NCBI GenBank assembly: GCA_963726775.1
Contig: CAVSDL010000008.1
Span: forward strand, 105,063-169,062
Length of the DNA stretch: 64,000 nt
Direction of reading: 5' to 3'
Source: an uncultured beta proteobacterium
GTDB taxonomy: Bacteria > Pseudomonadota > Gammaproteobacteria > Burkholderiales > Casimicrobiaceae
The notes beneath the pieces are model-generated. The model saw only the letters and a list, made by a program, of their open reading frames with translations, was not told the origin of the DNA and made no database searches. Position 1 is the stretch's first letter. Every line of letters starts with the position of its first letter. Shown here one piece after another: positions 16,618-31,246 of the stretch. A program made the position numbers and the translations under genes.

Positions 16618-16770
16618 GATCGTCATTTTCGCGAATGCGGAGACCCAGCGACGCTCGACCCAAGACACAGGATGGCCGTTCCTCGAAACTTCGCCGCTCA
16701 CGCGGCTCGTTTTCCCGCCTGCGCGGGAACGACGATATCTCTGCAGCCGCTGTCGCCCGATTCAATTGAG
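16618..16770 (+). repeat. Intergenic palindromic repeat, family 1, copy A (REP/MITE-like)
   Basis: Aligns with 39112-39254 and 56721-56826. Shared blocks are gatcgtc-ttcgcgaa(t/c)gcgg, ttcccgc-gcgggaacgacga and cttctgc-gccg(c/t)tgtc. It carries the 35-nt block ctcgaaacttcgccgctcacgcggctcgtt, which is also present in copy B. Confidence 0.75.
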
Positions 16771-16965: not shown

Positions 16966-17799
16966 GTGCGGCACCAGTCGCTGCTGGCGTATGCGAAGTA
17001 CCGGTATCTGAAAGTCGCGGCGCTGGTCGTGGCCGCTACGATCGCCGCGTACGCGCTTCATCGCCCGCCGGGCGGCCGCTACGGCGGCACATGGCTCGGC
17101 TACACGCTGGGCACCGTCGGCATGCTCCTGATCATCGGGCTTGCCTGGTTTGGCGTCCGCAAGCGCCAGTACAGTTCGACCGCCGGGACGCTGCTCGGCT
17201 GGCTCTCCGCGCACGTGTATCTCGGCATCACGCTGCTCGTCATCGCCACGTTGCACGCCGCGTTCCAGGTCGGCTGGAACGTGCACACCCTTGCTTACGC
17301 GCTGATGGTTGCCGTGATCGCATCCGGCTTCTACGGTGTGTGGGCGTATCTCAAGCATCCGCGCGCAATCACCGACGCGCTCGGCGAAGATACGCAGGAG
17401 TCCCTGCTCCTGAAGATCGCCGACCTCGATCGGCAGATGCGCGCGCTGGCGCTGGCGCTTCCCGATGCCGTCAACCGGCTGGTGCTCGCGGCGGCGCAGG
17501 AGACGCGGATCGGCGGCAGCTGGCGCGAGCAGCTCGCCGGTCACGACGCACATTGTCCTACTACGGCTGCAGTGACGGGCCTGCAGGCTGTCGGCAAGAC
17601 GTTGCGCGGCGGCGAGGCGCAAGCGAGCCAGCAACTCTACGCGCTGATGGTGCGCAAGCAGGAACTTGTCGCGCGCGCGCGCCGCGCCGTCGCGCTGAAG
17701 GCGCGGCTCGACGCCTGGCTCTACATCCACGTGCCGCTGTCGATCGCGCTCGTCGCGGCGCTGGTCGCCCACGTGGTCAGTGTGTTCTTCTACTGGTAG
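16966..17799 (+). CDS. Five-TM membrane protein with two H-X13-H helices (putative dihaem cytochrome b-like redox subunit)
   Basis: ORF 16672..17799. Its 5-prime part is repeat copy A, so the start was moved to GTG 16966, 7 nt after GGAGG (16954-16958). TM3 is SAHVYLGITLLVIATLHAAF and TM5 is YIHVPLSIALVAALVAHVV. Each has two His residues separated by 13 residues. Confidence 0.6.
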   Translation: MRHQSLLAYAKYRYLKVAALVVAATIAAYALHRPPGGRYGGTWLGYTLGTVGMLLIIGLAWFGVRKRQYSSTAGTLLGWLSAHVYLGITLLVIATLHAAFQVGWNVHTLAYALMVAVIASGFYGVWAYLKHPRAITDALGEDTQESLLLKIADLDRQMRALALALPDAVNRLVLAAAQETRIGGSWREQLAGHDAHCPTTAAVTGLQAVGKTLRGGEAQASQQLYALMVRKQELVARARRAVALKARLDAWLYIHVPLSIALVAALVAHVVSVFFYW

Positions 17800-17814
17800 C
17801 GCGCCCGGGCCCCG

Positions 17815-19563
17815 ATGAAGCTCCTGCTCGTCACCGTCACGCGCAACCGCAAGGGCCAGGCGGTGCGCGCGGCGCGCACGCTCGACGGCGAGTCGTTCGC
17901 GGTGGGCCGCGGCACGCCGTGCCCCGTCCACTTGCCCGATCCGCGCGTGGCGCTCGAGCACGCCACCATCTTCGCTGCCGGTGGCGCGACCCGGCTCGCG
18001 GCCGTTGGGGCGGCGACGCTGCTGGTGGACGGGCGCCCCGACCCGGAAGCCACGCTTGCGCCGGGCTCGAAGGTCGAAGTCGGACCGTACGTCCTGACGG
18101 TCGAGGTCCCACCCGCGGGCACGGACCTGGCGATCGCGATCGAATTGCAGCGCTCGCTTCCCGACGATCTCGCCGAAATCAAGGCGCGGTCGAGAATGTC
18201 GCTCGCGGCGACCGGCCTCGCGAAACGCAAGCCGGCGTGGGTGCTGTTAGCGATCGTTCTGGTGCTGTTTCTCGCGGTGCCGGTCGTCAACGCGCTGTAT
18301 CCGCCGCTGCGTGCGCTGACGGCGCAATTGCCGTTGACACCGGATCAGTCGTGGACACCGGGGCCGCTGGCGGCGGGACACGATGCCTTCGGCCGCGAGT
18401 GCGGCAAGTGCCATGAGGTCCCGTTCGTCCGCGTGCGCGACCGCACGTGCCTCGGATGCCATCAGAAGACCCCGGGGCACGCACCGACCGCGCAGTTGCA
18501 GGCCGACCTCTTCGGCGACACGCGCTGCGCGAGCTGCCACGCCGACCACAAAGGCACCGACGGACTGGTGCGCGCGGACTCGGCGCTATGCGCGGAATGC
18601 CACCGAGCGCTGAAGCGGCGATTCGCGGACACGGATCTCGGCGACGCTGCCGATTTCACCAAGGAGCATCCTGAATTCAGGCTCACGCTCTGGAGGGGCC
18701 CCGGCAACGACGACGTCGTGCGCGTCGCGCAGTCGGACAAGGCAAACCTCGTCGAAAAATCGCGCCTCAAGTTTCCGCACGAAGATCATATGAAGCAGAG
18801 CATTCGGAGTGCCAAGGGGCGCGTCACGCTGGAATGCCGGAGTTGTCATATGCCCGATGCCAGCGGCCGCTCCTTCGAGCCGGTCAACATGAAGAGACAT
18901 TGCATCGAATGCCACACGCTGGAGTTCGAGCCCGCGGTAACGACGCGCCAGGTTCCACACGGATCGGTCGACGAAGTCATGTTGACCATGCAGGAGTTCT
19001 ATGCAAGCATCGCCTTGAACGACGTCGCGGTCGATACCGTCGATACCGGCGAGATCCGGCGGGGGATACCCAGGCCCGCCGGAGGCACGGTCACCGAGGA
19101 GCAGCGTCAACGCGCCTTGGCGTGGGCCCGCAGCAAGGCCGGCAAGGTCGCGCAGGATCTGTTCGAGGCGCGGGTCTGCATCGTCTGTCACGAGGTCGTC
19201 AGAATGACGGGACCGGGGGGAGGGCAGAGCGAGACGGCCTGGAATGTCGCGCCCGTCCACGTCGCGACGAGTTGGCTTCCCAAGGCGCGGTTCGATCACC
19301 TCAAACATCGCACCTACAAATGCGATGACTGCCACGACCGGGTCGCGAAGTCGAAGTCCAGCAGCGACGTCTCCATCCCCGGCATCGAGTCCTGCCGTGT
19401 CTGTCACGCGGGCAACGAATCCGCGGCGAACAAGGTGGTGTCGACGTGCGTCGCCTGCCACGCCTTCCACGTGCCCGGCCATGCCCCGATGGGCCGACGC
19501 GCCGGCGCGGCCCGCGGGCACGACCTTGCGCGCGCACCGGCGACCTTCGGGAGCGTGAAGTGA
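17815..19563 (+). CDS. FHA domain - TM anchor - decahaem c-type cytochrome
   Basis: ORF 17815..19563. The N-terminal ~100 aa are FHA-like (FAVGRGTPCPVHLPDPRVALEHATIF...LLVDGRP...GSKVEVGPYVLTVE). One TM helix follows (AWVLLAIVLVLFLAVPVV). Ten CXXCH motifs are present: CGKCH, CLGCH, CASCH, CAECH, CRSCH, CIECH, CIVCH, CDDCH, CRVCH, CVACH. Confidence 0.85.
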   Translation: MKLLLVTVTRNRKGQAVRAARTLDGESFAVGRGTPCPVHLPDPRVALEHATIFAAGGATRLAAVGAATLLVDGRPDPEATLAPGSKVEVGPYVLTVEVPPAGTDLAIAIELQRSLPDDLAEIKARSRMSLAATGLAKRKPAWVLLAIVLVLFLAVPVVNALYPPLRALTAQLPLTPDQSWTPGPLAAGHDAFGRECGKCHEVPFVRVRDRTCLGCHQKTPGHAPTAQLQADLFGDTRCASCHADHKGTDGLVRADSALCAECHRALKRRFADTDLGDAADFTKEHPEFRLTLWRGPGNDDVVRVAQSDKANLVEKSRLKFPHEDHMKQSIRSAKGRVTLECRSCHMPDASGRSFEPVNMKRHCIECHTLEFEPAVTTRQVPHGSVDEVMLTMQEFYASIALNDVAVDTVDTGEIRRGIPRPAGGTVTEEQRQRALAWARSKAGKVAQDLFEARVCIVCHEVVRMTGPGGGQSETAWNVAPVHVATSWLPKARFDHLKHRTYKCDDCHDRVAKSKSSSDVSIPGIESCRVCHAGNESAANKVVSTCVACHAFHVPGHAPMGRRAGAARGHDLARAPATFGSVK

Positions 19564-21428
19564 ACGGAGGAAGCCGCGTCTTGCTGGCGGCCATCGTTCT
19601 CGCGGCGCTCGTCGCAGGCTGCGGCGGCGGCGGTGGCAACGGCGGCAGCCAGGTTTCGACGCCGAATGCACTGACGATCGCCGACGTGCAGCAAGTGATC
19701 GCGCAGGCGGTCGCCGAGGCACAGGCGCGAAACGCGAAGGCAACGATTGCGGTCGTCGATCGCGTCGGCAACGTGCTCGCGGTTTTCAGGATGAACGGCG
19801 CGGCAGCGACGTTCACGATCTCATCGGGCAGCGGCGTGGCCGGAGGGCTCGAGGGCCTGAACATCCTGCCTTCCGAACTGGCCGCGATCTCGAAGGCGAT
19901 CACCGGTGCGTATCTTTCGTCGGAAGGCAACGCGTTCACGACGCGGACCGCGAGCCAGATCATCCAGCAGAACTTCAACCCGGGCGAGCAGAACCAGCCG
20001 TCCGGGCCGCTGTCCGGCGTGCAATTCAGTCAGCTTTCGTGCTCCGACCTGAACCAGCAGGAAACGGCGGGGACCGTCGGACCGAAGCGCGCGCCGCTCG
20101 GCCTTTCCGCGGATCCGGGTGGAATGCCGCTCTACAAGGGCAGCACGCTTGTCGGCGGCGTCGGCGTCATCGCCGATGCGACGTATTCGCTCGACGCCGA
20201 TATCCAGAACACCGACACCGCTCCGGACGAATTGATCGCCGTTGCCGGCGCGTCCGGTTTCACCGCGCCCGCCGACCAGCGCGCGAACCGGATTACCGTT
20301 GATGGCCGTTCACTGAGATATGTCGACAGTGAGACGCTTGCGAGCAATCCGGCGAACGCGCCTTCGTTCGCGGCGATCGACGGCATCGCGGGCGCGTTGG
20401 TCAACGTCGCGGGGTACGGTGGCGCCCCAACGCGTTCCGGCGTCGTATTCGGCACGCCGGCGTCCGGTTTTCGCGCCGACACGAGCGCCGCATTTGCGGG
20501 AACCGGCGCGTACACGCTGGTCGACGCGGCCAACGCGGTCCGTTATCCGCCGACGGCCGGAACCGACGGCTACCTTACGCAGGCCGAGGTGACGCAGATC
20601 CTGCGCAGCGCGCTCGACGTCGCCAATCGCGCTCGCGCGCAGATCCGCCGGCCGCTCGGTTCGGCGGCGCAGGTTTCGGTCGTGGTCGTCGACACGAACG
20701 GAGTCGTGCTGGGACTGGTGCGCACGCCGGACGCGCCGGTGTTCGGCACCGACGTCGCGGTGCAGAAGGCCAGAAGCGCGGCGTTCTTCTCGAGCGCCAA
20801 CGCGGCGGCGCTGCTGTCGTCGCTGCCGCCCGCGCAATATCCGACCACTCCGGCCACGACCTCGTCGATCGCGGCGTACGTGACGGCCACACGACTGTTC
20901 CTCAATGATCCGACGGCGCTCGCCAACGGCGTGGCCTACGCGGTACGCAGCGTGGGGAACCTCTCGCGCCCGTACTTTCCCGATGGCATCGCGGGGACTG
21001 CGAACGGGCCGTTTTCGAAGCCGATCGCGATGTGGAGCCCGTTCAATGACGGTCTCCAGCTCGACCTCGTCGCCAACAAGCTCGTCGCCTCGCTGGCGCT
21101 GGGCGACAACTCGACCGGCTGCACCGGACTTTCCCAGCTGCCGAACGGCATCCAGATATTCCCGGGCGGCGTTCCTGTCTTCCGCGGCGGTCAGCTTGCG
21201 GGTGCTGTCGGGGTGTCGGGTGACGGCATCGACCAGGACGACATGGTCGCGTTCCTCGGGCTCGCCAATGCGGGCAAGGCGCTCGGCACGGGTGTCGCCA
21301 ATGCGCCGGCGGCGATCCGCGCCGACAACCTCGTGCCGCAGGGCACGGGCACGCGGCTGCGCTATGTGAATTGTCCGCAGGCGCCGTTCAATGGCAGCAG
21401 CGAACAGAATGTCTGTGCCGGGCTCTGA
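19560..21428 (+). CDS. Lipoprotein with two GlcG/DUF336 (haem-binding/degrading-like) domains
   Basis: GTG 19560 overlaps the upstream stop (GTGA) and gives VNGGSRVLLAAIVLAALVAGC (lipobox). Domain 1 reads LTIADVQQVIAQAVAEAQARNAKATIAVVDRVGNVLAVFRMNGA...GGMPLYKGSTLVGGVGV. Domain 2 reads LTQAEVTQILRSAL...VSVVVVDTNGVVLGLVRT...GGVPVFRGGQLAGAVGVSGDGIDQDD. Confidence 0.7.
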   Translation: MNGGSRVLLAAIVLAALVAGCGGGGGNGGSQVSTPNALTIADVQQVIAQAVAEAQARNAKATIAVVDRVGNVLAVFRMNGAAATFTISSGSGVAGGLEGLNILPSELAAISKAITGAYLSSEGNAFTTRTASQIIQQNFNPGEQNQPSGPLSGVQFSQLSCSDLNQQETAGTVGPKRAPLGLSADPGGMPLYKGSTLVGGVGVIADATYSLDADIQNTDTAPDELIAVAGASGFTAPADQRANRITVDGRSLRYVDSETLASNPANAPSFAAIDGIAGALVNVAGYGGAPTRSGVVFGTPASGFRADTSAAFAGTGAYTLVDAANAVRYPPTAGTDGYLTQAEVTQILRSALDVANRARAQIRRPLGSAAQVSVVVVDTNGVVLGLVRTPDAPVFGTDVAVQKARSAAFFSSANAAALLSSLPPAQYPTTPATTSSIAAYVTATRLFLNDPTALANGVAYAVRSVGNLSRPYFPDGIAGTANGPFSKPIAMWSPFNDGLQLDLVANKLVASLALGDNSTGCTGLSQLPNGIQIFPGGVPVFRGGQLAGAVGVSGDGIDQDDMVAFLGLANAGKALGTGVANAPAAIRADNLVPQGTGTRLRYVNCPQAPFNGSSEQNVCAGL

Positions 21429-23547
21429 CTTGTTGCGCGCAGCGTGCGCTGCGCTCGCCGTGGCGGCGATGGCCGGCGCCGGCGTTACGCTGGCGCAGAC
21501 TCCCGCCGCGGCGGCCAGAGGCGCGGCGGGGGCTGCGGCAAAGCCGGTCGATGGCCGCTACGGTATGCAGGTCCTCGCCGAGATCGTCAGCGTCCATTCG
21601 GAGCCGAACCCCAGGTCGGCGGTACTTGCCGATCTGCAACAGGGCGCAAAGCTGGAGGCCGATCAGCGCCGCGGCACCTGGTATCGCATCCGGCTTGCGG
21701 ACGGTCGCATCGGATGGATCGGCTACGTCGTCGGCAAGACGAGCGCGAATTTTTCGGTGGACGCCACGCCGGGGCTGGCGCGTGGCGTGCCGAGCGGCGC
21801 CGGTCAGCAGCCGGGGACTGTGGCCGCCGAGCCCGTGGCGCCGCCGGTTGTTGCCGCCGAAGCGGTTCCCGACGATCGCATCGTCGTGCAGCGACCGATG
21901 GGCAGACCGATCGAGCCGCCGATTCCCGAGATCGATCCAGCACAGGTGCCGCCTCCGGAGCCGCTCCTGCCGCGCGAGTCGATCCCGGTGCCCGACCGCT
22001 GGCGACTCACCGATCAGCTCGGCCTCACCGACAATCGCTGGTACGACCCGTACAACCCGAACACGCTGAAGGGCGACCGACCGGTATTCGGCGGCGACTG
22101 GTTCTTCAGCCTGGGCATCGTGTCCGACACGCTCTTCGAAGCGCGCCAGATTCCGACGCCCATCGGCGCGCAGTCCACCGATCGCCCGCAGTCGAACGAC
22201 CAGTTCGGCCGCAACCGGCAGTCGCAGTTCAACGAGAACCTGATCGTCAGCCTGTCGCTGCTGAAGGGCGACACGACGTTCAAGCCGCCGGAAATCGAGC
22301 TGCGGTTCGTGCCGGTCATCAACTTCAACCGCACGGACGTCGGCGAAGTCCGCGTGCTGAAGATCGATCCGCGCCAGGGGACGACGCGCAACGACAGCCA
22401 GGTCGCGGTGCAGGAGCTGTTCGTCGACTACGAGTACCACATCGCCTCCGAGCATTACGACTTCGACAGCGTTCGCGTCGGCATTCAGCCTATCACCGCC
22501 GATTTCCGCGGCCTGCTGTTCCTCGACCAGCCGCTGGGCATCCGCCTGTTCGGCACCCGCGACAACAACCAGTGGCAGTACAACTTCGGGTGGTTCCGCC
22601 GCCTCGAGAAGGACACCAACAGCGGCTTGAACGACATTGGCAAGCCTCTGCGCAACGAGAACATCTTTCTCGCCAACGTGTACCGCCAGGACTTCTGGGT
22701 TCCGGGATTCACGCTGCAAGGCACGGTGATCTACGACGACAACCGCGAGAGCGCGGACGCCTACTACGACAAGAACGGGTTCCAGGTCCGGCCCGCCATC
22801 ATGGGCGACGCGCGGCCGCACACGTATCAGGTCACCTACGTCGGCCTCAATGGCGACGGTCACTTCGGCCGCTGGAACCTCACCGCGTCGCTGTACGGCG
22901 CATTCGGGACGGTCAGCCACGATTCCCTTGCGCAGCAGAAGGTCGACGTCGCCGCCGCCTACGCGGTCGCCGAAGTCTCGCGCGATTTCGACTGGATCCG
23001 CGTGCGCGGCACGGGTCTTCTCCAGAGCGGCGACAAGGATCCGTTCGACAACAAGGCGACCGGCTTCGACGCGATCTACGAAAATCCGCAGATCGCCGGC
23101 GCGGACACCAGTTATTGGATCCGGCAGTCGGTCCCGCTGATCGGCGGCGGAGGCATAGCGCTCTCCGGACGCAACGGCGTGCTCGCCGCGCTGCGCTCGT
23201 CGAAGGACGAGGGCCAGGCCAATTTCACCAACCCCGGGCTCGCGCTGATCGGCGTGGGTGCCGACGCCGATCTCACGCCGCGCTGGCGCGTCATCGGCAA
23301 CCTGAACCAGTTGTGGTTCGCCAATACGTCGTCGCTGTCCGTCCTGCGCAACCAGGGCACGATCAGCCGCACCGTGGGCACCGACGTGTCGATGGCGGTC
23401 CAGTACCGTCCGCTGTTCTCGCAGAACGTCGTCCTGAATGCATCCGCGGCGGCGCTGATTCCGGGGCAGGGGCTGAAGCAGCTGTACGCGTTCGACGGCG
23501 GCAAGACGCAGTACTCGATCCTCTTCAACCTGCTGCTGACCTATTGA
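21409..23547 (+). CDS. Outer-membrane beta-barrel protein with N-terminal bacterial SH3-like domain
   Basis: ORF 21391..23547. ATG 21409 gives the signal peptide MSVPGSDLLRAACAALAVAAMAGAGVTLAQ. An SH3b-like segment follows (SVHSEPNPRSAVLADLQQGAKLEADQRRGTWYRIRLADGRIGWIGYV), then a Pro-rich linker. The remaining ~480 aa have alternating amphipathic strands and end in the aromatic terminus LFNLLLTY. Confidence 0.65.
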   Translation: MSVPGSDLLRAACAALAVAAMAGAGVTLAQTPAAAARGAAGAAAKPVDGRYGMQVLAEIVSVHSEPNPRSAVLADLQQGAKLEADQRRGTWYRIRLADGRIGWIGYVVGKTSANFSVDATPGLARGVPSGAGQQPGTVAAEPVAPPVVAAEAVPDDRIVVQRPMGRPIEPPIPEIDPAQVPPPEPLLPRESIPVPDRWRLTDQLGLTDNRWYDPYNPNTLKGDRPVFGGDWFFSLGIVSDTLFEARQIPTPIGAQSTDRPQSNDQFGRNRQSQFNENLIVSLSLLKGDTTFKPPEIELRFVPVINFNRTDVGEVRVLKIDPRQGTTRNDSQVAVQELFVDYEYHIASEHYDFDSVRVGIQPITADFRGLLFLDQPLGIRLFGTRDNNQWQYNFGWFRRLEKDTNSGLNDIGKPLRNENIFLANVYRQDFWVPGFTLQGTVIYDDNRESADAYYDKNGFQVRPAIMGDARPHTYQVTYVGLNGDGHFGRWNLTASLYGAFGTVSHDSLAQQKVDVAAAYAVAEVSRDFDWIRVRGTGLLQSGDKDPFDNKATGFDAIYENPQIAGADTSYWIRQSVPLIGGGGIALSGRNGVLAALRSSKDEGQANFTNPGLALIGVGADADLTPRWRVIGNLNQLWFANTSSLSVLRNQGTISRTVGTDVSMAVQYRPLFSQNVVLNASAAALIPGQGLKQLYAFDGGKTQYSILFNLLLTY

Positions 23548-23549
23548 GA

Positions 23550-26500
23550 ATGCGCGCGATGGCACATGGCAATCGTCGGACCGGCGACCGTCGGCAAGGA
23601 CAGGCGCGCGCCGGTGCCGTCTGCGCGGCGTGGCTGCCTCTGGCGGCCGGCGCGGTTCTCGCCGTGCTCTCCGCGCTGGCCTACGGGACCGGCGGGGAGT
23701 CGCCGGTGGCGCGCAACTACCTGCCGCAGGCGCCGGCGCCGGAACGCCAGACGCTCGCCGTGGCACAGGTGAAGTCGCAAGGCTGCAAGAGCTGCCACAC
23801 GGCGAGCGACCACGAGACGATGCACGTCAACCCCGCGGTGATCCTGGGATGCGCGGACTGCCACGGCGGCGACCCGAAGGTCACGAGGCCGCAGGGTGCG
23901 GAGCCGAAGGACCCGGCCTACCGGAACGCCGTGGCGAGCGCGCACGTGCTGCCGCGCTATCCGGTGGCGTGGAAATATCCGTCGAGCGCCAATCCGCCCG
24001 ACAGCTACACGCTGCTCAACCGCGAGGCGCCCGAATACGTGCGCTTCGTCAATCCCGGGGATTACCGCGTGGCGCGGGAATCCTGCGGCGCCTGCCATCT
24101 GCGCATCATCCAGGCGACCGAGCGAAGCCTGATGTCCAGCAGCGCCATGCTGTGGGGCGGCGGGTCGTACAACAACGGCATCCTGCCCTTCAAGCGCTAC
24201 GTGCTGGGCGAAGCGTATACGGCGCAAAGCGAGGCGGCGACGATCGTCAATCCGATCCCGCCGACGCCGCTGATGACCGAGAAAGGCATCCTGCCGCGGC
24301 TCTACCCGTTGCCGGCCTGGGAAACCGTGCCGCCGGGCGACGTCTTTCGCGTTTTCGAGCGCGGCGGGCGCGTGATCTCGAGCCAGTTCCCGGAAATCGG
24401 ACTGCCGAACATTGCCGGCGCGCTGCAAAGGCTCGACGAGCCCGGTCGCCCCGACATCCGGCAGTCGAACCGCGGGCCGGGCACCGGGCTCCGCATTTCG
24501 GTGCCGGTGCTCAACATCACGAAGACGCGGTTGAACGATCCGCACATGTGGTTCCTCGGGACGAACGAGCAGCCGGGTGACTACCGGTCGTCGGGGTGCT
24601 CCGGCTGCCACGCCGTCTACGCGAACGACCGCGACCCGAAGCACAGCGGCCCTTACGCGGCGTTCGGTCACGAAGGGCAGTCGCAAACCGCCGATCCGAC
24701 GATCGCGCGGGGCGAGTCCGGCCACCCGCTGAAGCACGAGTTAACGCGGGCGATTCCCTCGTCGCAGTGCATGGTCTGCCACATGCACCAGCCGAACGTT
24801 TTCGTGAATTCGTATTTCGGATTCATCATGTGGGACTACGAATCCGACGCGCCTTTCATGTGGCCGGAGAAGCAGCGTTACCCGACCGGCGCCGAGACGC
24901 GCGCGATCCTCGACCGCAATCCCGAGGAGGCGGCGATCCGCGGCAAGTGGAGCGACCCCGAGTTCCTTAAGGACGTCAGCGCGCTCAACGCGCAGCTCAA
25001 GGATACGCAGTTCGCCGACTACCACGGCCACGGCTGGAACTTCCGCGCGGTGTTCAAGCGCGACCGCAAGGGAACGCTGCAGGACAAGGACGGCAAGCCG
25101 GTCTCCGACGACGACCCGGACAAGTTCAAGAAGGCGGTGCACCTGACGTCGATCCACATGGACCTCGGCATGCACTGCGTGGACTGCCACTTCGCGCAGG
25201 ACGCGCACGGCAACGGCCACATCTACGGCGAGGTGGCGGCGGCCATCGAGATCGACTGCGCCGACTGCCATGGTACGGCGACGAAGTATCCGACGCTCTT
25301 CACGTCCGGCCCGGCTTCGCAGCCCGGCGGCACCGACCTGTCGCTGCTGCGCACGCAGGACGGGCGCAAGCGCTTCGAGTGGCGCGACGGCAAGCTCTAC
25401 CAGCGCGCGGCGCTCGACCCCGACAAGGAATGGGAGATGTCGCTGGTCAAGGACACCGTCAATCCGCTGCATCCGAAGTACAACGTCAAGGCCGCCAGGG
25501 CGAAGCTCATGTCGACCGGCGACTCGATGCAGTGGGGGCCCGGCGTCGACCCGCAGAAATACGCGCACGGCGACGACAAGGTGACCTGCCAGACCTGCCA
25601 CCTGTCGTGGACCACCAGCTGCGCGGGCTGCCACCTGCCGATCCAGGCGAACGCGAAGACCGAGCGCCACCACTACGAGGGCGGCGAAACGCGCAACTTC
25701 GCGACGTACAACCCGCAGGTCGCGCGCGACGACATGTTCCAGCTCGGCCGCCACGGCGATGCGAAGAACTTCAGGATCGCGCCGGTGCGCTCCAGCTCGG
25801 CGCTGGTGCTGTCGTCGACCAACATCAACCGCGAGCGGATCTACATCCAGCAGCCACCCGTCGCGGCGTCGGGATTCAGCTCGCAGGCGTTTGCGCCGCA
25901 CTATCCGCATACCGAGCGCAAGACCGAGACCAAGACCTGCCCCGACTGCCATCTGTCGAAGAGCAACGACAACAACGCGATCATGGCGCAACTCCTCCTG
26001 CAGGGGACGAATTTCGTCAACTTCGTCGGCTACAACGCGTGGGTCGGCGAGGAGCGCCGCGTCACTGCCGTGCAGGTGACCGAGTGGGACGAGCCGCAGG
26101 CCGTGATCGGCAGCTACCTGCACCGCTACGCGTACCCCGACTGGTACGCCCAGCACCAGCAGCGCGACAAACGGCTGCCGACGATGTCGACGCACGACAC
26201 GAAGGGCGCCGCCCGCTGCCTGCAACTGCGCGGCGAATACCTCTACGTCGCCGAAGGCGCGGGAGGGATGCGCGTCTACGACGTCGCCAGCATCGCCAAC
26301 AAGGGAGTGTCGCAGAAGATCCTGAGCGCGCCGTTCGCGCCCTGGGGCCAGGACACGCACATCCGCTCGACGAACGCCACCTGCGTGGCGCTGCCGACCA
26401 ACCAGCCGATCGCCCCGCAGCGCAACGAGGGCGATCTGATGCGGGTGACGAATCAGGAGCAGCCGTTCCACCCGATGTACAACTACGCGGCGATCACCGA

Positions 26501-27398
26501 CGCGGTCGAGGGCCTGATCCTCACCAACGTCAACACGCTCGCCGACGGCGACCCGCAGAACAACTTCCTCGTGCGCGCGGTGACGTGGAACGAGAACGGC
26601 ATTCTCAACGGCGCGCGCCACATCACGCTGGGCGGGCGCTACGCCTATGTCGCCGCCGATGCCGGGCTCGTCGTCGTCGATCTCGACGATCCGCTCAAGC
26701 CGAAGCTGGTCGCGATCGTCGCCCTGAAGGGTGTGCGCGCCTCGGCGCTGCAGTTCCGCTACCTGTTCGTTGCCGACGACGCCGGATTGACGACCGTCGA
26801 CGTCACCGATCCGGCGCGGCCGCGGCACGTGGGCACCGCGCGCGTCCCGCTTGCCGACGCCAACCGCATCTACGTGGCACGCACCTACGCCTACGTCGCC
26901 GCCGGCAAGGAAGGGCTTGCGATCGTCGACGTCGAGCAGCCGGAGGCGCCGAAGCTGTACATGAAATTCACCGCCGAAGGCAGACTCGACGACGCGCGCG
27001 ACGTCGTCGTCGGCAGCACCAACGCGTCGCTGTTCGCCTATGTCGCCGACGGCGCGAACGGCCTCAAGGTGGTGCAGATGACCGCGCCGGACACGCAGCC
27101 GAAATTCTACGGATTCTCGCCGGATCCCAAGCCGCAGCTGATCGCGTGGCGCGGTACGGTGACGCCCGCGCTGGCGCTGTCGAAGGGACTCGACCGCGAC
27201 CGCGCGGTGGATGAGACCGGCGGCCAGATCGCGGTGTTCGGCCGGATCGGCTCGCGCCCGTTCACGTTGGAAGAGATGAAGAAGTTCTACCAGCGCCCCG
27301 ACGGCACGGTGTGGACCGTGACCGACGAGGTCCGGATGCAGGAGTTCGTGCCCGCGCGCGCGACGGCGGCTGACACCCGGCCGTTGCCGAGGCAGTGA
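23550..27398 (+). CDS. Large decahaem c-type cytochrome fused to a C-terminal LVIVD-repeat beta-propeller (1282 aa)
   Basis: This is the real gene within track ORF 21444..27398. ATG 23550 lies 2 nt after the OMP stop. There is an N-terminal hydrophobic anchor or signal (AVCAAWLPLAAGAVLAVLSALAYG). Ten CXXCH motifs are present: CKSCH, CADCH, CGACH, CSGCH, CMVCH, CVDCH, CADCH, CQTCH, CAGCH, CPDCH. At least five LVIVD-type repeats follow (YLYVAEGAGGMRVYDV, YAYVAADAGLVVVDLDDP, YLFVADDAGLTTVDVTDP, YAYVAAGKEGLAIVDVEQP, FAYVADGANGLKVVQM). Confidence 0.85.
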   Translation: MRAMAHGNRRTGDRRQGQARAGAVCAAWLPLAAGAVLAVLSALAYGTGGESPVARNYLPQAPAPERQTLAVAQVKSQGCKSCHTASDHETMHVNPAVILGCADCHGGDPKVTRPQGAEPKDPAYRNAVASAHVLPRYPVAWKYPSSANPPDSYTLLNREAPEYVRFVNPGDYRVARESCGACHLRIIQATERSLMSSSAMLWGGGSYNNGILPFKRYVLGEAYTAQSEAATIVNPIPPTPLMTEKGILPRLYPLPAWETVPPGDVFRVFERGGRVISSQFPEIGLPNIAGALQRLDEPGRPDIRQSNRGPGTGLRISVPVLNITKTRLNDPHMWFLGTNEQPGDYRSSGCSGCHAVYANDRDPKHSGPYAAFGHEGQSQTADPTIARGESGHPLKHELTRAIPSSQCMVCHMHQPNVFVNSYFGFIMWDYESDAPFMWPEKQRYPTGAETRAILDRNPEEAAIRGKWSDPEFLKDVSALNAQLKDTQFADYHGHGWNFRAVFKRDRKGTLQDKDGKPVSDDDPDKFKKAVHLTSIHMDLGMHCVDCHFAQDAHGNGHIYGEVAAAIEIDCADCHGTATKYPTLFTSGPASQPGGTDLSLLRTQDGRKRFEWRDGKLYQRAALDPDKEWEMSLVKDTVNPLHPKYNVKAARAKLMSTGDSMQWGPGVDPQKYAHGDDKVTCQTCHLSWTTSCAGCHLPIQANAKTERHHYEGGETRNFATYNPQVARDDMFQLGRHGDAKNFRIAPVRSSSALVLSSTNINRERIYIQQPPVAASGFSSQAFAPHYPHTERKTETKTCPDCHLSKSNDNNAIMAQLLLQGTNFVNFVGYNAWVGEERRVTAVQVTEWDEPQAVIGSYLHRYAYPDWYAQHQQRDKRLPTMSTHDTKGAARCLQLRGEYLYVAEGAGGMRVYDVASIANKGVSQKILSAPFAPWGQDTHIRSTNATCVALPTNQPIAPQRNEGDLMRVTNQEQPFHPMYNYAAITDAVEGLILTNVNTLADGDPQNNFLVRAVTWNENGILNGARHITLGGRYAYVAADAGLVVVDLDDPLKPKLVAIVALKGVRASALQFRYLFVADDAGLTTVDVTDPARPRHVGTARVPLADANRIYVARTYAYVAAGKEGLAIVDVEQPEAPKLYMKFTAEGRLDDARDVVVGSTNASLFAYVADGANGLKVVQMTAPDTQPKFYGFSPDPKPQLIAWRGTVTPALALSKGLDRDRAVDETGGQIAVFGRIGSRPFTLEEMKKFYQRPDGTVWTVTDEVRMQEFVPARATAADTRPLPRQ

Positions 27399-27406
27399 GG
27401 AACACC

Positions 27407-28768
27407 ATGAGACCAACGACCCTCCGTTCCGATCAACGTCGCGCGCGCCTCGCCGGCTCGCTCGTCGCGGTGGCCCTGGCGCTTTTCGCCGCGGCAGCCG
27501 TCGCGCAGACAGCGGCCCCGGTCCCGCTGCCCTATCACGCCGCCGACAAGAGCATGGGCGTGGTCAATTGCGCGAACAGCCTGTGCCATGGCTCGGTGCA
27601 GCCGATCAGGGATTCGAACGTGCTGCAGACCGAATATGTGACGTGGTCGCGGGTCGACAAGCACGCACGCGCTTACAAAGTGCTCTTCAACGACCAGTCG
27701 CAGCGCATCGCCCGCAACCTGGGTCTTGCCAAACCGCCGCACGAGGAAGCGGTATGCCTCAACTGCCATGCGCACAATGTCCCTGCGGCGCAGCGCGGCG
27801 AGCGCTTCAAGTTCGACGACGGCGTGTCCTGCGAGGCCTGCCACGGTCCGGCGGGCCGCTGGCTCGCGGGCCATGCGCAGGACGGCGCCACGCACGCGGA
27901 CAACCTTAAGGCCGGCCTCTATCCGACCGACGATACGGTGCACCGGGCACAGCTGTGCCTGTCATGCCACTTCGGCAATGCCGACCGCTTCGTCACCCAC
28001 CGGATCATGGGCGCGGGGCACCCGCGGATGAGCTTCGAGCTCGACACGTTCACGACCGTCGAGCCCGCGCACTTCAAGCCCGATTCCGATTGGGAGAAGC
28101 GTAAGCGGATGTGGGACGGCGTCAAGGTATGGGCGATCGGGCAGGCGCTCGTCGTCTCCGAGATGATGGACGTGCTGGCCGATCCTAAGCGCGGGCGCGA
28201 CGGGTTGTTCCCCGAACTCGTGCTGTTCGACTGCCACGCCTGCCATCACCCGATGAGCGACAGGCGCTGGGCGCCGCGCATCGCCGGCCTGGGACCCGGC
28301 ACGGTGCGGCTCAACGACTCGAGCATGCTCATGGTGAGGCAGATCGCGCGCGTCGTGGATCCCGCGCTCGGCGAGCGCATTGCCGCGACGATGACGAAGC
28401 TCCAGCAGACGGTGACCGGCGGCGGCGACGCGATCGGGCAGGCGAATGCATTGAAGGCCGACATGGCGACGCTGATCGCCGTTCTCGACAAACGCACGAT
28501 CGGCGAGGCCGACATGCGCGCGATCCTCGCCGGTCTCGTCAATGACGGGCTGGCTGGCCAGTACCGCGACTACGCCGGAGCCGAGCAGGCGACCATGGCG
28601 ATCGGCAGCGTCGCCAATTTCATGTTCCAGCGCGGCGTGCTCAAATCGGCGCGGGATGTCAACGGCGGACTCGCCGCGCTGCAGGCGGCCGTCGCCGATG
28701 ACGAGCGCTACAGCCCCGGACGGTTTCAGGCGGCGTTGAGGAATTTCCGCGGAACCGTGGGGCTGTAG
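27407..28768 (+). CDS. Periplasmic multihaem cytochrome, cytochrome c554-like family
   Basis: ORF 27395..28768. ATG 27407 gives the signal peptide MRPTTLRSDQRRARLAGSLVAVALALFAAAAVAQ. There are four CXXCH motifs (CLNCH, CEACH, CLSCH, CHACH) plus one CX4CH (CANSLCH). The C-terminal half is helical and haem-free. Confidence 0.75.
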   Translation: MRPTTLRSDQRRARLAGSLVAVALALFAAAAVAQTAAPVPLPYHAADKSMGVVNCANSLCHGSVQPIRDSNVLQTEYVTWSRVDKHARAYKVLFNDQSQRIARNLGLAKPPHEEAVCLNCHAHNVPAAQRGERFKFDDGVSCEACHGPAGRWLAGHAQDGATHADNLKAGLYPTDDTVHRAQLCLSCHFGNADRFVTHRIMGAGHPRMSFELDTFTTVEPAHFKPDSDWEKRKRMWDGVKVWAIGQALVVSEMMDVLADPKRGRDGLFPELVLFDCHACHHPMSDRRWAPRIAGLGPGTVRLNDSSMLMVRQIARVVDPALGERIAATMTKLQQTVTGGGDAIGQANALKADMATLIAVLDKRTIGEADMRAILAGLVNDGLAGQYRDYAGAEQATMAIGSVANFMFQRGVLKSARDVNGGLAALQAAVADDERYSPGRFQAALRNFRGTVGL

Positions 28769-28831
28769 GCGTCGCCGCTGTTCGGATCCGGACAACTCCT
28801 CGCCTCCGACTCGGGATGACACGTCCAGATC

Positions 28832-31246
28832 ATGCCTGAATCGTTCAAGATCGCCATCGTCGGTTCCGGTCCGTCCGGCCTCTCGGCCGCGGCGCACGCG
28901 GCCGAACTCGGCATCGCCCATGTGCTGCTGGAGTCGGAAAAGCAACCCGCCGACACGATCTACAAGTACCAGAAGGGCAAGTACGTGATGGCGGAGCCGT
29001 CGATCCTGCCGCTGCGCAGCCCGATGTCGTTCGCCGCCGGCACGCGCGAGAAGGTCCTTGGGGCATGGGACGCCGAACTGGCGAAGTACAAGGTAAACCT
29101 GCGGAAGGGCGCCGGGGTCACCGCCATTGCCGGGCAGAAGGGTGCCTTCGCCCTCACGCTCGCGGGGGGCGACACGGTTGCCGCCGAGCACGTGATCCTC
29201 GCGATCGGATTGCAGGGCAATCTGCGCAAGCTCGGTGCGCCGGGCGAAGACCTGCCCATCGTCCAGTACCAGCTCGACGACCCGAAGGAGTACGAGGACG
29301 AGACGATCATCGTCGTCGGCGCCGGCGACGCCGCGATCGAGAATGCGCTGGCGCTGGCGGAACAGAACCGCGTGATACTGATCAACCGCAACGAGGAATT
29401 CGCCCGCTGCAAGGAAGGCAACCTGAGCCTGGTCCTCGCGGCGATCAAGGATGGCAAGCTCGAATGCCGGTACCAGGCGTCGGCGGCGAACGTGGAGATG
29501 GTCACGACCGACGGCTGTCCCGCGCGATTCAATGCCAGGACGCCCGAGGGCGCCGAGACCATCGGCTGCCACCGCGTCATCGCGCGCCTGGGGGCGATCC
29601 CGCCACGCAAGCTGGTCGAGTCGTTCGGCGTCAAGTTCCCCAATGCGGACCCGGCGGCGGTGCCGCAGCTTTCCGATACCTACGAATCGAACGTGCCCGG
29701 CCTCTACATCATCGGCGCGTTGGGCGGCTATCCGCTGATCAAGCAGGCGATGAACCAGGGCTTTGAGGCCGTCGAATACATTCGTGGCAACCGCGTCGAG
29801 CCGGCGGACGAATCGCTGCTCAAGGCGAAGTTCGCGCATTACGTGCGGGCAAGGACGGTCGGCGAAGGGCTTTCGCTGCTGCAGAGGAATGTGCCGCTGC
29901 TGGCCGGCATCACAACGCTGCAGTTGCGCGAGTTCCTGATCGACAGCGACATTCGCACGCCGAAACCGGGCGAGATCGTCTTCAATCGCCTTGACTACAC
30001 GAACACATTCTACTCGATCGTCGAAGGCGAGGTCGGCGTCGAGCTCAACGGCGGAACGCCCGATGCGCGCTGGATCGTGCTCCGCTCCGGCGATTTCTTC
30101 GGTGAGCTATCGCTGATCTCCGGGCGCCGCCGCGCGGCGACGGTGAAGGCGGGACAGGACTGCGTGCTGGTCGAGACGCCGCGGCGCTCGATGCTGAAGC
30201 TGATCGCATCGGTCGACAGTGTGCGGCGCACGATCGACGCCACATTCCTGAAGCGAGCGATCCGCGCGTACCTGTCGCAGGAGTTGCCCGAGGCGGACCT
30301 CGATGCGCTTGCCGAAGGCGCGCAGATCAGGGCCGTCGCCGCCGGCGATACGCTGTTCGCCGAGGGTGCTGCAGCCGACGGACTCTATCTGATACGCCGT
30401 GGATCAGTGACGGTGTCGCGCCGGATCGGCGGCCGCGATGTCGTGCTGTCGTACGTCGCGGCCGGCAACTATGTCGGCGAGATGGCGCTCCTGTCCGACG
30501 CCCCGCGGATGGGAACCGTGAAGGCTGCGGTGGCGACCGAGGCGATCGTCCTCGACGGCGCGCGGTTCAAGGACGTCGTGGCGCGGCATCCGAAGCTGCG
30601 CGAGTCGATGGAGAGCCGTTTTCTCGACCGCATCCGCGCCAATGTGCAGATGGAATCGCAGGGCGAGTCGGGCAACGTCATCAGCTACCTGCTGCAGCAG
30701 GGCATCGGCGAGGCCACCGACGTCCTGCTGATCGACGAGAGCCTGTGCATACGCTGCGATAATTGCGAAAGGGCGTGCGCCGACACGCACGAAGGCACGT
30801 CGCGGCTCAATCGCGAGGCCGGCCCGACCTACGCGCAGCTCCACGTGCCGACGTCGTGCCGCCATTGCGAGCACCCCCACTGCATGAAGGACTGCCCGCC
30901 GGACGCGATCCACCGGGCGCCGAACGGCGAAGTGTTCATCATGGACACCTGCATCGGCTGCGGCAATTGCGAGCGCAATTGTCCCTATGGCGTCATCCAG
31001 ATGGCCCCGCTGGATCCGCGGCGCCGCGCGCCGAGCCTGTGGTCGTGGCTGCTATGGGGAACGGGCGCCGAGCCCGGCCGCGAGGAAAAGGTCTACGACA
31101 AGTCGATGGTCAAGAAGGCCGTCAAGTGCGACATGTGCAAGGGCCAGGCCGGCGGCGCCGCCTGCGTGCGCGCCTGTCCCACGGGAGCCGCGCTCCGCGT
31201 GTCGCCGGAGAAATTCCTCGATTACGCGAGCGGGGTCGAAGTCTGA
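28832..31246 (+). CDS. Fusion protein: FAD/NAD(P)-dependent pyridine nucleotide-disulfide oxidoreductase domain + two cyclic-nucleotide-binding domains + four-cluster [4Fe-4S] ferredoxin domain
   Basis: ORF 28832..31246. Dinucleotide folds: IAIVGSGPSGLSAA and IIVVGAGDAAIENA. cNMP signatures: FFGELSLISGRRRAATVKA and YVGEMALLSDAPRMGTVKA. Cys motifs: CIRCDNCERAC, CRHCEHPHCMKDCP, CIGCGNCERNCP, CDMCKGQAGGAACVRACP. There is no signal or Tat peptide. Confidence 0.85.
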   Translation: MPESFKIAIVGSGPSGLSAAAHAAELGIAHVLLESEKQPADTIYKYQKGKYVMAEPSILPLRSPMSFAAGTREKVLGAWDAELAKYKVNLRKGAGVTAIAGQKGAFALTLAGGDTVAAEHVILAIGLQGNLRKLGAPGEDLPIVQYQLDDPKEYEDETIIVVGAGDAAIENALALAEQNRVILINRNEEFARCKEGNLSLVLAAIKDGKLECRYQASAANVEMVTTDGCPARFNARTPEGAETIGCHRVIARLGAIPPRKLVESFGVKFPNADPAAVPQLSDTYESNVPGLYIIGALGGYPLIKQAMNQGFEAVEYIRGNRVEPADESLLKAKFAHYVRARTVGEGLSLLQRNVPLLAGITTLQLREFLIDSDIRTPKPGEIVFNRLDYTNTFYSIVEGEVGVELNGGTPDARWIVLRSGDFFGELSLISGRRRAATVKAGQDCVLVETPRRSMLKLIASVDSVRRTIDATFLKRAIRAYLSQELPEADLDALAEGAQIRAVAAGDTLFAEGAAADGLYLIRRGSVTVSRRIGGRDVVLSYVAAGNYVGEMALLSDAPRMGTVKAAVATEAIVLDGARFKDVVARHPKLRESMESRFLDRIRANVQMESQGESGNVISYLLQQGIGEATDVLLIDESLCIRCDNCERACADTHEGTSRLNREAGPTYAQLHVPTSCRHCEHPHCMKDCPPDAIHRAPNGEVFIMDTCIGCGNCERNCPYGVIQMAPLDPRRRAPSLWSWLLWGTGAEPGREEKVYDKSMVKKAVKCDMCKGQAGGAACVRACPTGAALRVSPEKFLDYASGVEV

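Follow-up and report, generated by a model that had tools for sequence, protein, structure and literature searches.

Gene content of the cluster

The DNA analysed here is a 64,000-nucleotide (nt) stretch of contig CAVSDL010000008.1 from an uncultured member of the Casimicrobiaceae, referred to below as the window. A cluster of seven genes (g1 to g7), all on the forward strand, occupies positions 16966–31246 and encodes multihaem cytochromes together with membrane, lipoprotein and flavoprotein components. The genes are listed below, with product lengths in amino acids (aa) and distances counted from the end of the preceding gene.

16966–17799, forward strand: g1, 277 aa, inner-membrane protein, putative di-haem cytochrome b
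17815–19563, forward strand: g2, 582 aa, +15 nt after g1, membrane-anchored decahaem cytochrome
19560–21428, forward strand: g3, 622 aa, −4 nt after g2 (GTGA overlap), GlcG/HbpS-like lipoprotein
21409–23547, forward strand: g4, 712 aa, −20 nt after g3, outer-membrane barrel with an SH3b domain
23550–27398, forward strand: g5, 1282 aa, +2 nt after g4, decahaem cytochrome with an LVIVD propeller
27407–28768, forward strand: g6, 453 aa, +8 nt after g5, pentahaem cytochrome
28832–31246, forward strand: g7, 804 aa, +63 nt after g6, flavin/cyclic nucleotide/polyferredoxin fusion

The preliminary description of this sequence had listed seven co-oriented genes with junctions of +15, −4, −20, +2, +8 and +63 nt, and these values were reproduced exactly when the open reading frames (ORFs) were checked. 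The G+C content of the window is ~66%, and the frames of the seven genes were backed by the G+C content at third codon positions. Starts were ambiguous for g1, g4 and g5, which public gene calls on the same contig place at 16930, 21391 and 23559, respectively. The starts at 16966, 21409 and 23550 were favoured because of the N-termini of homologues and a GGAGG upstream of 16966. When g5 and g4 were looked up in public contigs by exact match, neither was on record, since the called starts differ. A scan of the cluster for promoter and terminator consensus sequences detected neither promoters nor internal terminator-like sites above chance, and co-transcription of the seven genes was inferred from their spacing and synteny. 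No consistent FNR, CRP or Fur box was found upstream in 48 loci, and an Rfam scan of the window and three loci detected no riboswitch and no other RNA.

Haem-attachment motifs numbered 25 (24 CXXCH and one CX4CH): ten CXXCH in g2, ten CXXCH in g5, and four CXXCH plus the CX4CH in g6. The earlier count of 10+10+5 was thus borne out, one motif being CX4CH, and the numbers are nearly invariant in homologues (63 of 64 for g2, 79 of 80 for g5, 51 of 51 for g6). Profile searches also recovered nearly all of the domains named in the preliminary description, the FHA domain of g2 falling below threshold, and topology signals and domains supported its placement of the products in the cytoplasm, inner membrane, periplasm and outer membrane. 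For none of the seven proteins did an NCBIfam equivalog or subfamily model reach its cut-off, and searches of the PDB by sequence and profile with g1, g4, g5 and g6 gave nothing meaningful. The names given by PGAP to the Sphingobium set are generic ('cytochrome c family protein', 'heme-binding protein', 'hypothetical protein', 'multiheme c-type cytochrome', 'cytochrome c3 family protein' and 'cyclic nucleotide-binding domain-containing protein').

Distribution and gene order

Species were counted in a scan with one genome per species, and synteny was analysed in the best 80 loci of that scan, from Beta-, Gamma- and Alphaproteobacteria, by tblastn with all seven window proteins. A relative of g5 is encoded in at least 577 species genomes, and more than 7,796 protein clusters at 90% identity matched it; ~15 full-length representatives with 41–63% identity were among the best matches of an exhaustive profile search. 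The best 80 loci include those of the isolates Limnobacter alexandrii, Fontimonas, Zavarzinia, Stagnimonas aquatica, Sinimarinibacterium flocculans, Sphingobium subterraneum and S. algorifonticola. Many hosts (Sphingobium, Limnobacter, Zavarzinia) belong to genera that we take to be aerobic, and most to groups that are presumably organoheterotrophic and not known as lithotrophs.

All seven genes were found together in nearly every locus with sufficient flanking sequence, and 41 loci held all of them within ~10 kb. The order was g1-g2-g3-g4-g5-g6-g7 in Betaproteobacteria and g7-g1-g2-g3-g4-g5, followed by g6 on either strand, in most Alpha- and Gammaproteobacteria; in Sphingobium it was g6-g3-g4-g5, with g7-g1-g2 on the opposite strand. 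Through these three orders, g7-g1-g2 and g3-g4-g5 remained contiguous. Because the order shuffles by lineage, two sub-modules can be distinguished, g7-g1-g2 and (g6)g3-g4-g5. The least tightly linked gene was g6, which in some loci lay on either strand or was not found within the available flank. Median identities were 66% for g5, 55% for g7, 53% for g4, 51% for g3, 45% for g6, 44% for g1 and 34% for g2.

A chance adjacency, in which unrelated cytochrome and membrane genes are merely neighbours, could appeal to the 63-nt gap between g6 and g7 and to the deduced nature of the seven-gene transcript. However, all seven genes co-occur across three proteobacterial classes in differing orders, and the flanking genes are unrelated between loci. 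This synteny effectively refutes chance adjacency, which we regard as extremely improbable. Judged by gene order and co-occurrence, the seven genes are one conserved functional unit, in agreement with what had been proposed for them from the window.

In Sphingobium, the cluster is carried on megaplasmids of ~1 Mb. On one of these (locus L083, Sphingobium herbicidovorans pMSHV 793294–823187), genes of two-partner secretion (ShlB/FhaC) flank the cluster on both sides, a 2092-aa hypothetical protein is encoded upstream, and metallophosphoesterase genes lie beside g2 and further downstream. An extra protein of ~149 aa is encoded between g2 and g3 in ~11 loci, mostly alphaproteobacterial (L022, L025, L027, L030, L034, L037, L038, L041, L042, L080 and L082; for example, at 5764–6213 in L025). 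It has a signal-peptide-like hydrophobic N-terminus and no Pfam match, and has no counterpart in the window.

Predicted cytoplasmic flavoprotein and inner-membrane cytochrome b

The product of g7 has no signal peptide and no transmembrane (TM) helix and is predicted to be cytoplasmic. Residues 5–330 form a FAD-NAD(P)H domain of TrxR-like/YpdA-like type (Pyr_redox_3) without conserved Cys, so that a redox-active CxxC is absent. At ~375–600, two PKA-type cyclic-nucleotide-binding (cNMP) domains follow (cNMP_binding, PF00027, 114.8 bits, two stretches). Their phosphate-binding cassettes, FGELSLISGRRRAATVKA (423–440) and VGEMALLSDAPRMGTVKA (548–565), retain the Glu and the Arg. Residues 639–782 are a polyferredoxin of HycB/DmsB type (Fer4 families) with 16 invariant Cys in four [4Fe-4S] motifs, which is the pattern of four-cluster ferredoxin subunits (DmsB/HybA/HycB/NrfC type). 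Part by part, g7 resembles YpdA/Bdr and a TrxR-like protein from Thermus in the flavin domain, the regulatory subunits of PKA in the cNMP domains, and HycB, PsrB and ArrB in the polyferredoxin. A cytoplasmic fusion of FAD/NAD(P), two cNMP and four [4Fe-4S] parts had been read from the sequence and was confirmed by Pfam, the invariant Cys and the topology; the cNMP domains behind the cyclic-nucleotide sensors proposed with it are solid, both having intact Glu/Arg cassettes. A cytoplasmic chain from NAD(P)H through FAD to four [4Fe-4S] clusters is suggested by the linkage of g7 to g1, by the cytoplasmic location of g7 and by the joining of a flavin domain without a disulphide centre to a four-cluster wire.

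The g1 protein has five TM helices predicted by hydropathy, with a cytoplasmic insert of ~125 aa between TM4 and TM5. Its motifs are W79-X3-H83-X13-H97 on TM3, S120-G-X-X-G124 on TM4 and W251-X3-H255-X13-H269 on TM5, and the motif residues, including H83, H97, H255 and H269, were invariant in 13 diverse homologues. Hydropathy and the invariant His thus uphold the earlier view of g1 as a protein of the inner membrane that has two H-X13-H helices. By the positive-inside rule, TM3 and TM5 are predicted to run in the same orientation, from the cytoplasm to the periplasm. The pairs H83+H255 and H97+H269 would each hold one haem b, one near each membrane face. All 13 members of the g1 family matched Pfam Ni_hydr_CYTB weakly (best E 2.5e-6); 3 of the 13 matched Ferric_reduct (PF01794; best E 0.0084, below the 28-bit cut-off), and a few also matched DUF4405. 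We take these three families to belong to the same di-haem cytochrome clan. Each of the weak matches is to a family of membrane proteins with haem b, either prokaryotic cytochrome b561 or the ferric-reductase domain.

The features of g1 are those of a predicted protein class. He, Barco, Emerson and Roden (2017, Front Microbiol 8:1584; hereafter He et al. 2017, cited from the part available) described the predicted gene clusters PCC3 and PCC4, which share an inner-membrane protein (IMP) of ~300 aa with five TM helices, WX3HX13H on TM3 and TM5 and SGXXG on TM4, for which two b haems were proposed. All of these defining features, as given there, are present in g1. According to the same source, PCC4 comprises a porin, the IMP, further redox proteins and three cytochromes of the periplasm that carry 4, 5 and 10 haems, and its subgroup II has a gene for an Fe-S protein upstream of the IMP. 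Supplementary Table 6 of the paper, as available, also lists porin-less trios of Gallionella, with a cytochrome of 544–556 aa and 9 haems, an IMP of 308–310 aa and a redox protein of 796–805 aa. By description, these match g2, g1 and g7 in size and in the order of kinds. By the motifs of g1 and the sizes of g7, g1 and g2, the inner-membrane module belongs to this predicted class.

He et al. (2017) modelled the IMP as quinone-linked, and in a corresponding reading g1, in the manner of CbcL or the PCC3/PCC4 IMP, would act as a quinone reductase or quinol dehydrogenase that connects the quinone pool with the c haems, with g7 as a cNMP-controlled accessory that poises or senses the redox state and is not the main electron source. 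The weak matches of g1 to Ni_hydr_CYTB, whose members FdnI and HyaC are quinone-reactive, agree with this, as do some porin-less clusters that He et al. (2017) describe, in the same part, with an IMP and a cytochrome and no third redox protein. However, no rearrangement separates g7 from g1, only g5 is more conserved than g7, the four-cluster polyferredoxin of g7, fused to a flavin domain, suits delivery of electrons to a partner, and no quinone-site motif was identified in g1. The quinone-linked alternative seems distinctly unlikely.

Decahaem cytochrome g2 and its cytoplasmic head

In g2, a cytoplasmic FHA/YscD-like domain (~aa 14–102) is followed by a TM helix (143–161) and a periplasmic decahaem domain (aa 189–552), which consists partly of c7-type tri-haem modules. 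Exactly ten non-motif His were invariant in 65 sequences; together with the ten CXXCH, they suggest bis-His ligation of all ten haems. The C-terminal tri-haem module matched structures of the GSU1996 'nanowire' cytochrome (3OUE/3OV0), and the N-terminus matched GarA weakly (E 0.009).

Of the two parts of the earlier reading of g2, the inner-membrane-anchored decahaem cytochrome stood (TM helix, ten CXXCH), but the FHA domain remained below the Pfam thresholds (FHA 18.4 vs 20.7 bits; YscD_cpl 25.8 vs 33.2 bits). Among the FHA contact residues, the Arg of GR is kept, the Ser of SxxH is mostly Ala, and the Asn of NGT is absent. The domain is entirely missing from the g2 homologues of Limnobacter, Oxalobacteraceae and Silanimonas. 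With two of the three contact residues gone and the domain lost in three lineages, the proposal of a phosphothreonine reader was abandoned. The head of g2 is better described as a putative degenerate FHA/YscD-like fold, for which a fold-level relation to FHA is plausible. The best Pfam match of the head is to the cytoplasmic domain of YscD, which has an FHA fold that serves docking and not phosphothreonine reading. A 'Forkhead-associated protein' with 10 haem motifs was listed under 'Other' by Hoover et al. (2023) in 27 of 87 Gallionellaceae iron oxidisers. This description, like those of PCC3/PCC4 and of the Gallionella trio, is a prediction.

In ~ten gammaproteobacterial loci (L043 15168–16007; L056 15119–16033 and 18135–18965; L024, L035, L036, L046, L052, L061 and L081), the neighbourhood of the cluster includes some or all of three genes, which encode a Ser/Thr kinase, a PP2C phosphatase and a membrane protein carrying two canonical FHA domains; in several of these loci they are directly downstream of g6. 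None of these genes was found in the window. Because they adjoin the cluster, control by threonine phosphorylation is plausible in those gammaproteobacterial lineages.

Lipoprotein, barrel and the cytochromes g5 and g6

The g3 protein has a lipobox (LVAGC), a Gly-rich linker and two duplicated GlcG/HbpS-like (DUF336) modules. PF03928 was matched with 85.9 bits (cut-off 25) in 3 stretches, the internal duplication was detected at E 2e-6, and the lipobox was present in all 15 homologue N-termini displayed; a lipoprotein with two GlcG/DUF336 domains is what had been reported for g3. Its relatives in the PDB are EfgA/GlcG. Four Cys and no His are conserved.

In g4, a signal peptide precedes a periplasmic SH3b domain (aa 51–118; SH3_3, 33.8 bits), a conserved Pro-rich segment and a barrel (aa 231–712), consistent with its first assignment as an outer-membrane barrel with SH3b; the SH3b domain is absent from some homologues. 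In an AlphaFold2 model based on a 43-sequence alignment, a disordered linker follows the SH3 domain, and 18 long strands have a predicted local distance difference test (pLDDT) score of ~80. In a Foldseek search against the PDB, AlgE ranked first (E 9e-18), followed by OprD/Occ, chitoporin and ScrY/LamB, and MtrB was not among the 50 best matches. The Pfam family MtrB_PioB gave no match to g4 at E ≤ 0.01. The OprD/Occ, chitoporin and sucrose/maltoporin proteins are 18-strand solute channels, and the 16-strand Cyc2 is thought to enclose one haem. Judging from the model, a folded decahaem domain inside the g4 barrel is unlikely, and a small haem-bearing segment remains conceivable. The N-terminal Pro-rich stretch and residues 555–604 had low model confidence yet were conserved, and they could be plugs or partner sites.

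The g5 protein combines a decahaem region (aa 79–801), with ten CXXCH spread over ~720 residues and large, highly conserved non-haem inserts, with an LVIVD propeller at ~aa 825–1215 (PF08309, 84.1 bits vs cut-off 20.2). The motifs, the Pfam match and the structure model agree with the preliminary description of g5 as a 1282-aa fusion of this kind. The invariant motif DYHGHGWNFR (490–499) lies within these inserts. Plain Sec signal peptides without a lipobox were found in the 16 homologue N-termini displayed. The haem region has 14 conserved non-motif His for ten haems, among them those of DYHGHGWNFR, so all haems may be bis-His, with a few conserved His to spare. A conserved Cys pair in the propeller (890/945) fits an oxidising compartment. 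In AlphaFold2, only the propeller was confident; its Foldseek matches were generic (AztD, WD40, YWTD) and carry no information on the haem region. Searches of the PDB with g5 by sequence and profile returned only short generic multihaem modules and no solved-structure relative of the haem region. A longer, distant homologue (P0252, 1648 aa) has an N-terminal multihaem extension of ~500 aa and c7/c3 type that resembles the start of the g2 haem domain, a weak hint by fusion that g2-like wires may feed g5-like proteins. Other longer homologues are P0257 (1702 aa) and P0517 (1631 aa); the latter shares a 90% cluster with 1268-aa proteins and may be a read-through or gene-call fusion. Sorting domains were sought in the longer homologues, and only further cytochrome modules were found.

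The g6 protein is a periplasmic pentahaem cytochrome with CX4CH at 55–61, four CXXCH and a C-terminal non-haem domain of ~170 aa that matches no assigned family. Cytochrome_C554 (PF13435) was matched with 38.4 bits (cut-off 20.8), by which the c554-like assignment holds at the level of the domain; no sequence relative was found in the PDB. Five to six distal His are conserved. Since the conserved distal His suffice, bis-His ligation is possible in g2, g5 and g6.

Possible outer-membrane crossing and the Mtr comparison

Like MtrCAB, PioAB and MtoAB, the cluster encodes decahaem cytochromes next to an outer-membrane barrel and a lipoprotein, and its haem count could span the envelope. No canonical MtrA, MtrB or MtrC part had been seen in it before, and Pfam, NCBIfam, the structure model and Foldseek concur. 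MtrA is soluble and has ~330 aa, whereas g2 is anchored and has 582 aa; TIGR03508 gave 22.1 bits for g2 and 19.9 for g6 against a cut-off of 192.2. Unlike MtrC, g5 has 1282 aa and is not a lipoprotein; MtrC-MtrF_II-IV gave 25.6 bits against a cut-off of 30, and TIGR03507 gave no match. The lipoprotein g3, in contrast to the Mtr lipoprotein cytochrome, carries no c haem. The preliminary description had compared the set to porin-cytochrome conduits. Adjoining barrel, lipoprotein and decahaem genes were indeed found, but the barrel is AlgE/OprD-like and not an MtrB-like sheath. Because g4 is modelled as an AlgE/OprD-like channel of ~18 strands, the sheath analogy is structurally doubtful.

A true conduit across the outer membrane, following Mtr/PCC logic, would have g5 exported to the surface (for example, by type II secretion), tethered by g3 and g4 and reducing or oxidising an insoluble or macromolecular extracellular partner such as Fe/Mn minerals, humics or another cell, with a haem-bearing segment or g3 bridging the g4 barrel. 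The 25 conserved haems would suffice to cross the envelope, Pfam describes LVIVD repeats as typical of proteins at the surface, the genes for the lipoprotein, the barrel and the cytochrome are contiguous in every case, and such a layout was proposed for PCC3/PCC4 (He et al. 2017). Genes for GspE/F/G stand beside the cluster in 5 of the 80 loci, where well under one would be expected by chance (rough estimate). Against the conduit, the g4 model has ~18 strands of AlgE/OprD type in place of the 26-strand MtrB type, and MtrB_PioB was not matched. Moreover, the displayed homologue N-termini of g5 lack a lipobox, and no other protein of the set is as conserved as g5, whereas rapid divergence is usual for cytochromes at the surface. 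On balance, the conduit is possible but doubtful.

The loci with type II secretion genes (GspE, GspF, GspG) within 10 kb of the cluster are L023, L038, L039, L057 and L080, and a PilN/GspL-like gene was found in L018. These adjacent genes are the best hint that some component leaves the periplasm.

Comparison with other systems and the literature

Four [4Fe-4S] clusters coupled to a trans-membrane di-haem b are also found in FdnGHI and [NiFe]-hydrogenase modules, and a cytoplasmic Fe-S protein is linked to periplasmic multihaem cytochromes in Tmc/Hmc of Desulfovibrio. Here, however, an NAD(P)H flavin domain and two cNMP sensors are joined to a polyferredoxin on the cytoplasmic side, g1 is distant from FdnI/HyaC, and no quinone or CCG-type subunit is present. 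As proposed here, NOX/FRE and MsrQ-Fre send electrons out of the cytoplasm from NAD(P)H and flavin by way of two stacked b haems with His pairs on TM3/TM5, a placement that g1 shares. In the present cluster, however, the parts are separate proteins, an Fe-S chain stands between them and 25 c haems come after, and the Ferric_reduct match is marginal (3 of 13). The pairing of a cytochrome b with periplasmic multihaem c resembles Geobacter CbcL/Cbc, but only at the module level, as no Rieske or bc-type partner and no selenoprotein of the Cbc/ext kind occurs here. A di-haem module of ~50 aa in g5 (531–582) matched the model of Geobacter ExtM, an uncharacterised 12-haem protein, at E 1.7e-16. Assignment of g5 as ExtM (NF040943) was rejected, with 59.6 bits against a cut-off of 800 and a match confined to 531–582. 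The modelled g4 barrel is closest to AlgE and is encoded next to a lipoprotein, as in the AlgE-AlgK and OprD/Occ comparison. Yet sequence similarity to AlgE is not detectable (~12% identity), polysaccharide synthesis genes are absent, and g4 has the SH3b domain and a long conserved N-terminal segment.

Compared by description with PCC4 in the available part of He et al. (2017), the cluster has in common a porin-like barrel, the IMP, an Fe-S protein and 5- and 10-haem cytochromes, but the haem numbers differ (4/5/10 vs 10/10/5), with no tetrahaem protein here. That part of the text makes no mention of a 1282-aa cytochrome-propeller fusion, a GlcG lipoprotein or FHA or cNMP domains, and the PCC4 hosts it names are different (Hyphomicrobium, Zetaproteobacteria, Oceanospirillum and Planctomycetes). 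Literature searches found no follow-up work on PCC4 and nothing on an LVIVD-cytochrome fusion. The cluster was not described in literature retrieved for multihaem proteins with LVIVD, for FHA with cNMP, for GlcG, for Casimicrobiaceae, for the host genera, for the Sphingobium RefSeq accessions or in candidate surveys. The set had first been thought to fit no characterised system. This holds in that no curated family and no experimental paper was found, but g1 matches the PCC3/PCC4 IMP and the sizes of the trio match Gallionella. Within the limits of a comparison with PCC4 by description, from the part of the paper available, the output module (GlcG lipoprotein, AlgE-like barrel, decahaem-propeller protein) and the FNR-cNMP-polyferredoxin input appear undescribed.

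Proposed path of electrons

The reading we favour, held tentatively, is that of an envelope-spanning electron-transfer machine with NAD(P)H input, in which g5 acts from the inner face of the outer membrane on what crosses the g4 channel. It builds on domain content, motif conservation, topology signals and gene linkage, and adds to them cofactor binding, a direction of flow and contacts between subunits. Electrons from NAD(P)H would be accepted at the FAD of g7, a flavoprotein of thioredoxin-reductase-like or ferredoxin-NADP reductase (FNR) type, and passed along its own four [4Fe-4S] clusters to g1, on which g7 might dock like an inside-out FdnH-FdnI pair or a split NOX; the two cNMP domains of g7 would gate the flow. 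The two b haems of g1 would carry the electrons over the inner membrane, the one on the periplasmic side reducing g2. As a membrane-anchored decahaem wire, g2 could span much of the periplasm, and its FHA/YscD-like head, in most lineages, may be a docking or regulatory module. Electrons would then be relayed by g6 to g5, for which the lipoprotein g3 and the AlgE-like barrel g4 would provide the attachment to the outer membrane. There, g5 would act at the inner face on a substrate or shuttle passing g4, which in this arrangement would not be a sheath for the cytochrome.

Several points weigh against this path. Fusions of g7 with g1 or of g1 with g2 were sought among the best 120 g1 homologues and none was found, all being stand-alone proteins of 274–329 aa. 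The haem region of g5 had pLDDT <50 in AlphaFold2, and a possible catalytic site was not located. No experimental study of any of the seven proteins was found in the literature. The role proposed by He et al., that of a quinol dehydrogenase, could also apply to g1, with g7 then a side input. The 25-haem chain, the usual surface association of LVIVD and the type II secretion genes in 5 of 80 loci mean that g5 may be extracellular, although this would need an outer-membrane electron route that is not evident here. Finally, the aerobic hosts would make the physiological acceptor obscure.

The direction of flow could be reversed. In electron uptake, g5 would be the site at which a donor, for example Fe(II) or Mn(II), is oxidised, either outside the cell or in the periplasm. 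Electrons would move inwards through the haems to g1, and from there enter the quinone pool or reach NAD(P)+ by way of g7. Related clusters with an IMP, and likewise FHA-decahaem proteins, occur commonly among Gallionellaceae iron oxidisers, this direction was proposed for PCC3/PCC4 in iron oxidisers, and haem chains are reversible in principle. Transfer to NAD(P)+, however, would by our reasoning be strongly uphill and opposed by the membrane potential, the hosts are mostly, as we assume, organoheterotrophs, and the cluster has no energy-coupling subunit. With NAD(P)H at about −320 mV, outward flow is downhill and aided by the membrane potential, whereas inward flow to NAD(P)+ is opposed by both. 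Uptake is rated as improbable.

Within the outward direction, the system might be a counterpart of NADPH oxidase/ferric reductase stretched over the Gram-negative envelope, that is, a non-respiratory, signal-triggered discharge of NAD(P)H to the cell surface, which we consider unlikely. If it were true, cAMP or cGMP (and in some lineages Ser/Thr phosphorylation) would be the trigger, and the quinone pool would be bypassed via four Fe-S clusters, two b haems and 25 c haems. Its purpose might be, for example, to mobilise Fe/Mn by reduction, to generate reactive oxygen species outside the cell or to attack organic matter by redox chemistry, and the lipoprotein, barrel and propeller would be an outer-membrane device unlike any known porin-cytochrome complex.

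Other genes in the window

Genes of the ccm set were identified by tblastn at 2–3266 on the reverse strand:

2–475, reverse strand: start of ccmF (window edge)
1209–1889, reverse strand: ccmC
1933–2637, reverse strand: ccmB
2649–3266, reverse strand: ccmA

A ccm operon had been noted in the window, and the genes are present, but they do not adjoin the cluster: they lie 13.7 kb away on the opposite strand, with unrelated genes between. In ~14 of the 80 other loci, ccm genes are directly beside the cluster. In the window, they have a supporting role and do not belong to the cluster. The operon was also sought in the 36–52 kb region, which proved to be a methyl-amine/betaine demethylation cluster. 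This quaternary-amine/glycine-betaine demethylation-like cluster (36423–52378) encodes a DAO-GCV_T fusion, an MttB-family methyltransferase, RACo, a pterin-binding protein, MTHFR, a homocysteine S-methyltransferase, and ABC and periplasmic binding proteins.

Just downstream of g7, a maeB-type fusion of malic enzyme and phosphotransacetylase (31312–33604, forward strand) contains a single-base frameshift near 32803. Compared with the orthologue in L002 (763 aa), frame 1 runs to 32802 and frame 2 from 32804, indicating an assembly indel or a pseudogene. Upstream of the cluster, a pair of genes for a 2-oxoacid:ferredoxin oxidoreductase (POR_N/PFOR_II, then TPP_enzyme_C) lies at 10233–14677 (forward strand). 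Before this pair, a 770-aa protein joins a GltD-like NADPH flavoprotein domain (Fer4_20 and Pyr_redox_2) to a C-terminal 4Fe-4S dicluster, so that the neighbourhood holds a further fusion of the NAD(P)H-to-Fe-S kind besides g7. Divergent from g1, a 659-aa GSDH (glucose/sorbosone dehydrogenase) propeller protein is encoded at 14722–16701 (reverse strand). Its N-terminal ~320 aa have no assignment, and it is not conserved beside the cluster in other loci.

Two adjoining genes, at 6754–7659 (reverse strand) and 8405–9595 (forward strand), comprise a RIO-type atypical protein kinase gene and a 396-aa ORF without a Pfam match, the latter in a stretch with a weak codon-position G+C signal. At 34001–36000, the G+C content falls to 0.59, beside a gene for the alpha subunit of a Rieske ring-hydroxylating oxygenase (35128–36894, reverse strand), and this segment may have been acquired recently.

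Implications

The cluster is a real and widespread envelope redox system, and the sequence comparisons and the g4 model suggest that it is a variant of the predicted PCC type whose mechanism at the outer membrane would lie outside the Mtr paradigm. The probable NAD(P)H input would be unusual. The cluster would offer a first handle on the PCC3/PCC4 IMP class of cytochrome b, predicted in 2017, for which the literature searches found no test. The hosts, members of the Alpha-, Beta- and Gammaproteobacteria, come from soil, fresh water and the sea, and some are aerobic isolates that can be handled experimentally, for example Sphingobium herbicidovorans MH, Limnobacter alexandrii and Zavarzinia. 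Both extracellular and periplasmic electron transfer is mostly discussed for anaerobic metal reducers and lithotrophic iron oxidisers. If the favoured reading is true, a 27-haem system tied to an NAD(P)H-type flavoprotein and cNMP sensors would represent an unrecognised envelope redox activity in ordinary aerobes.

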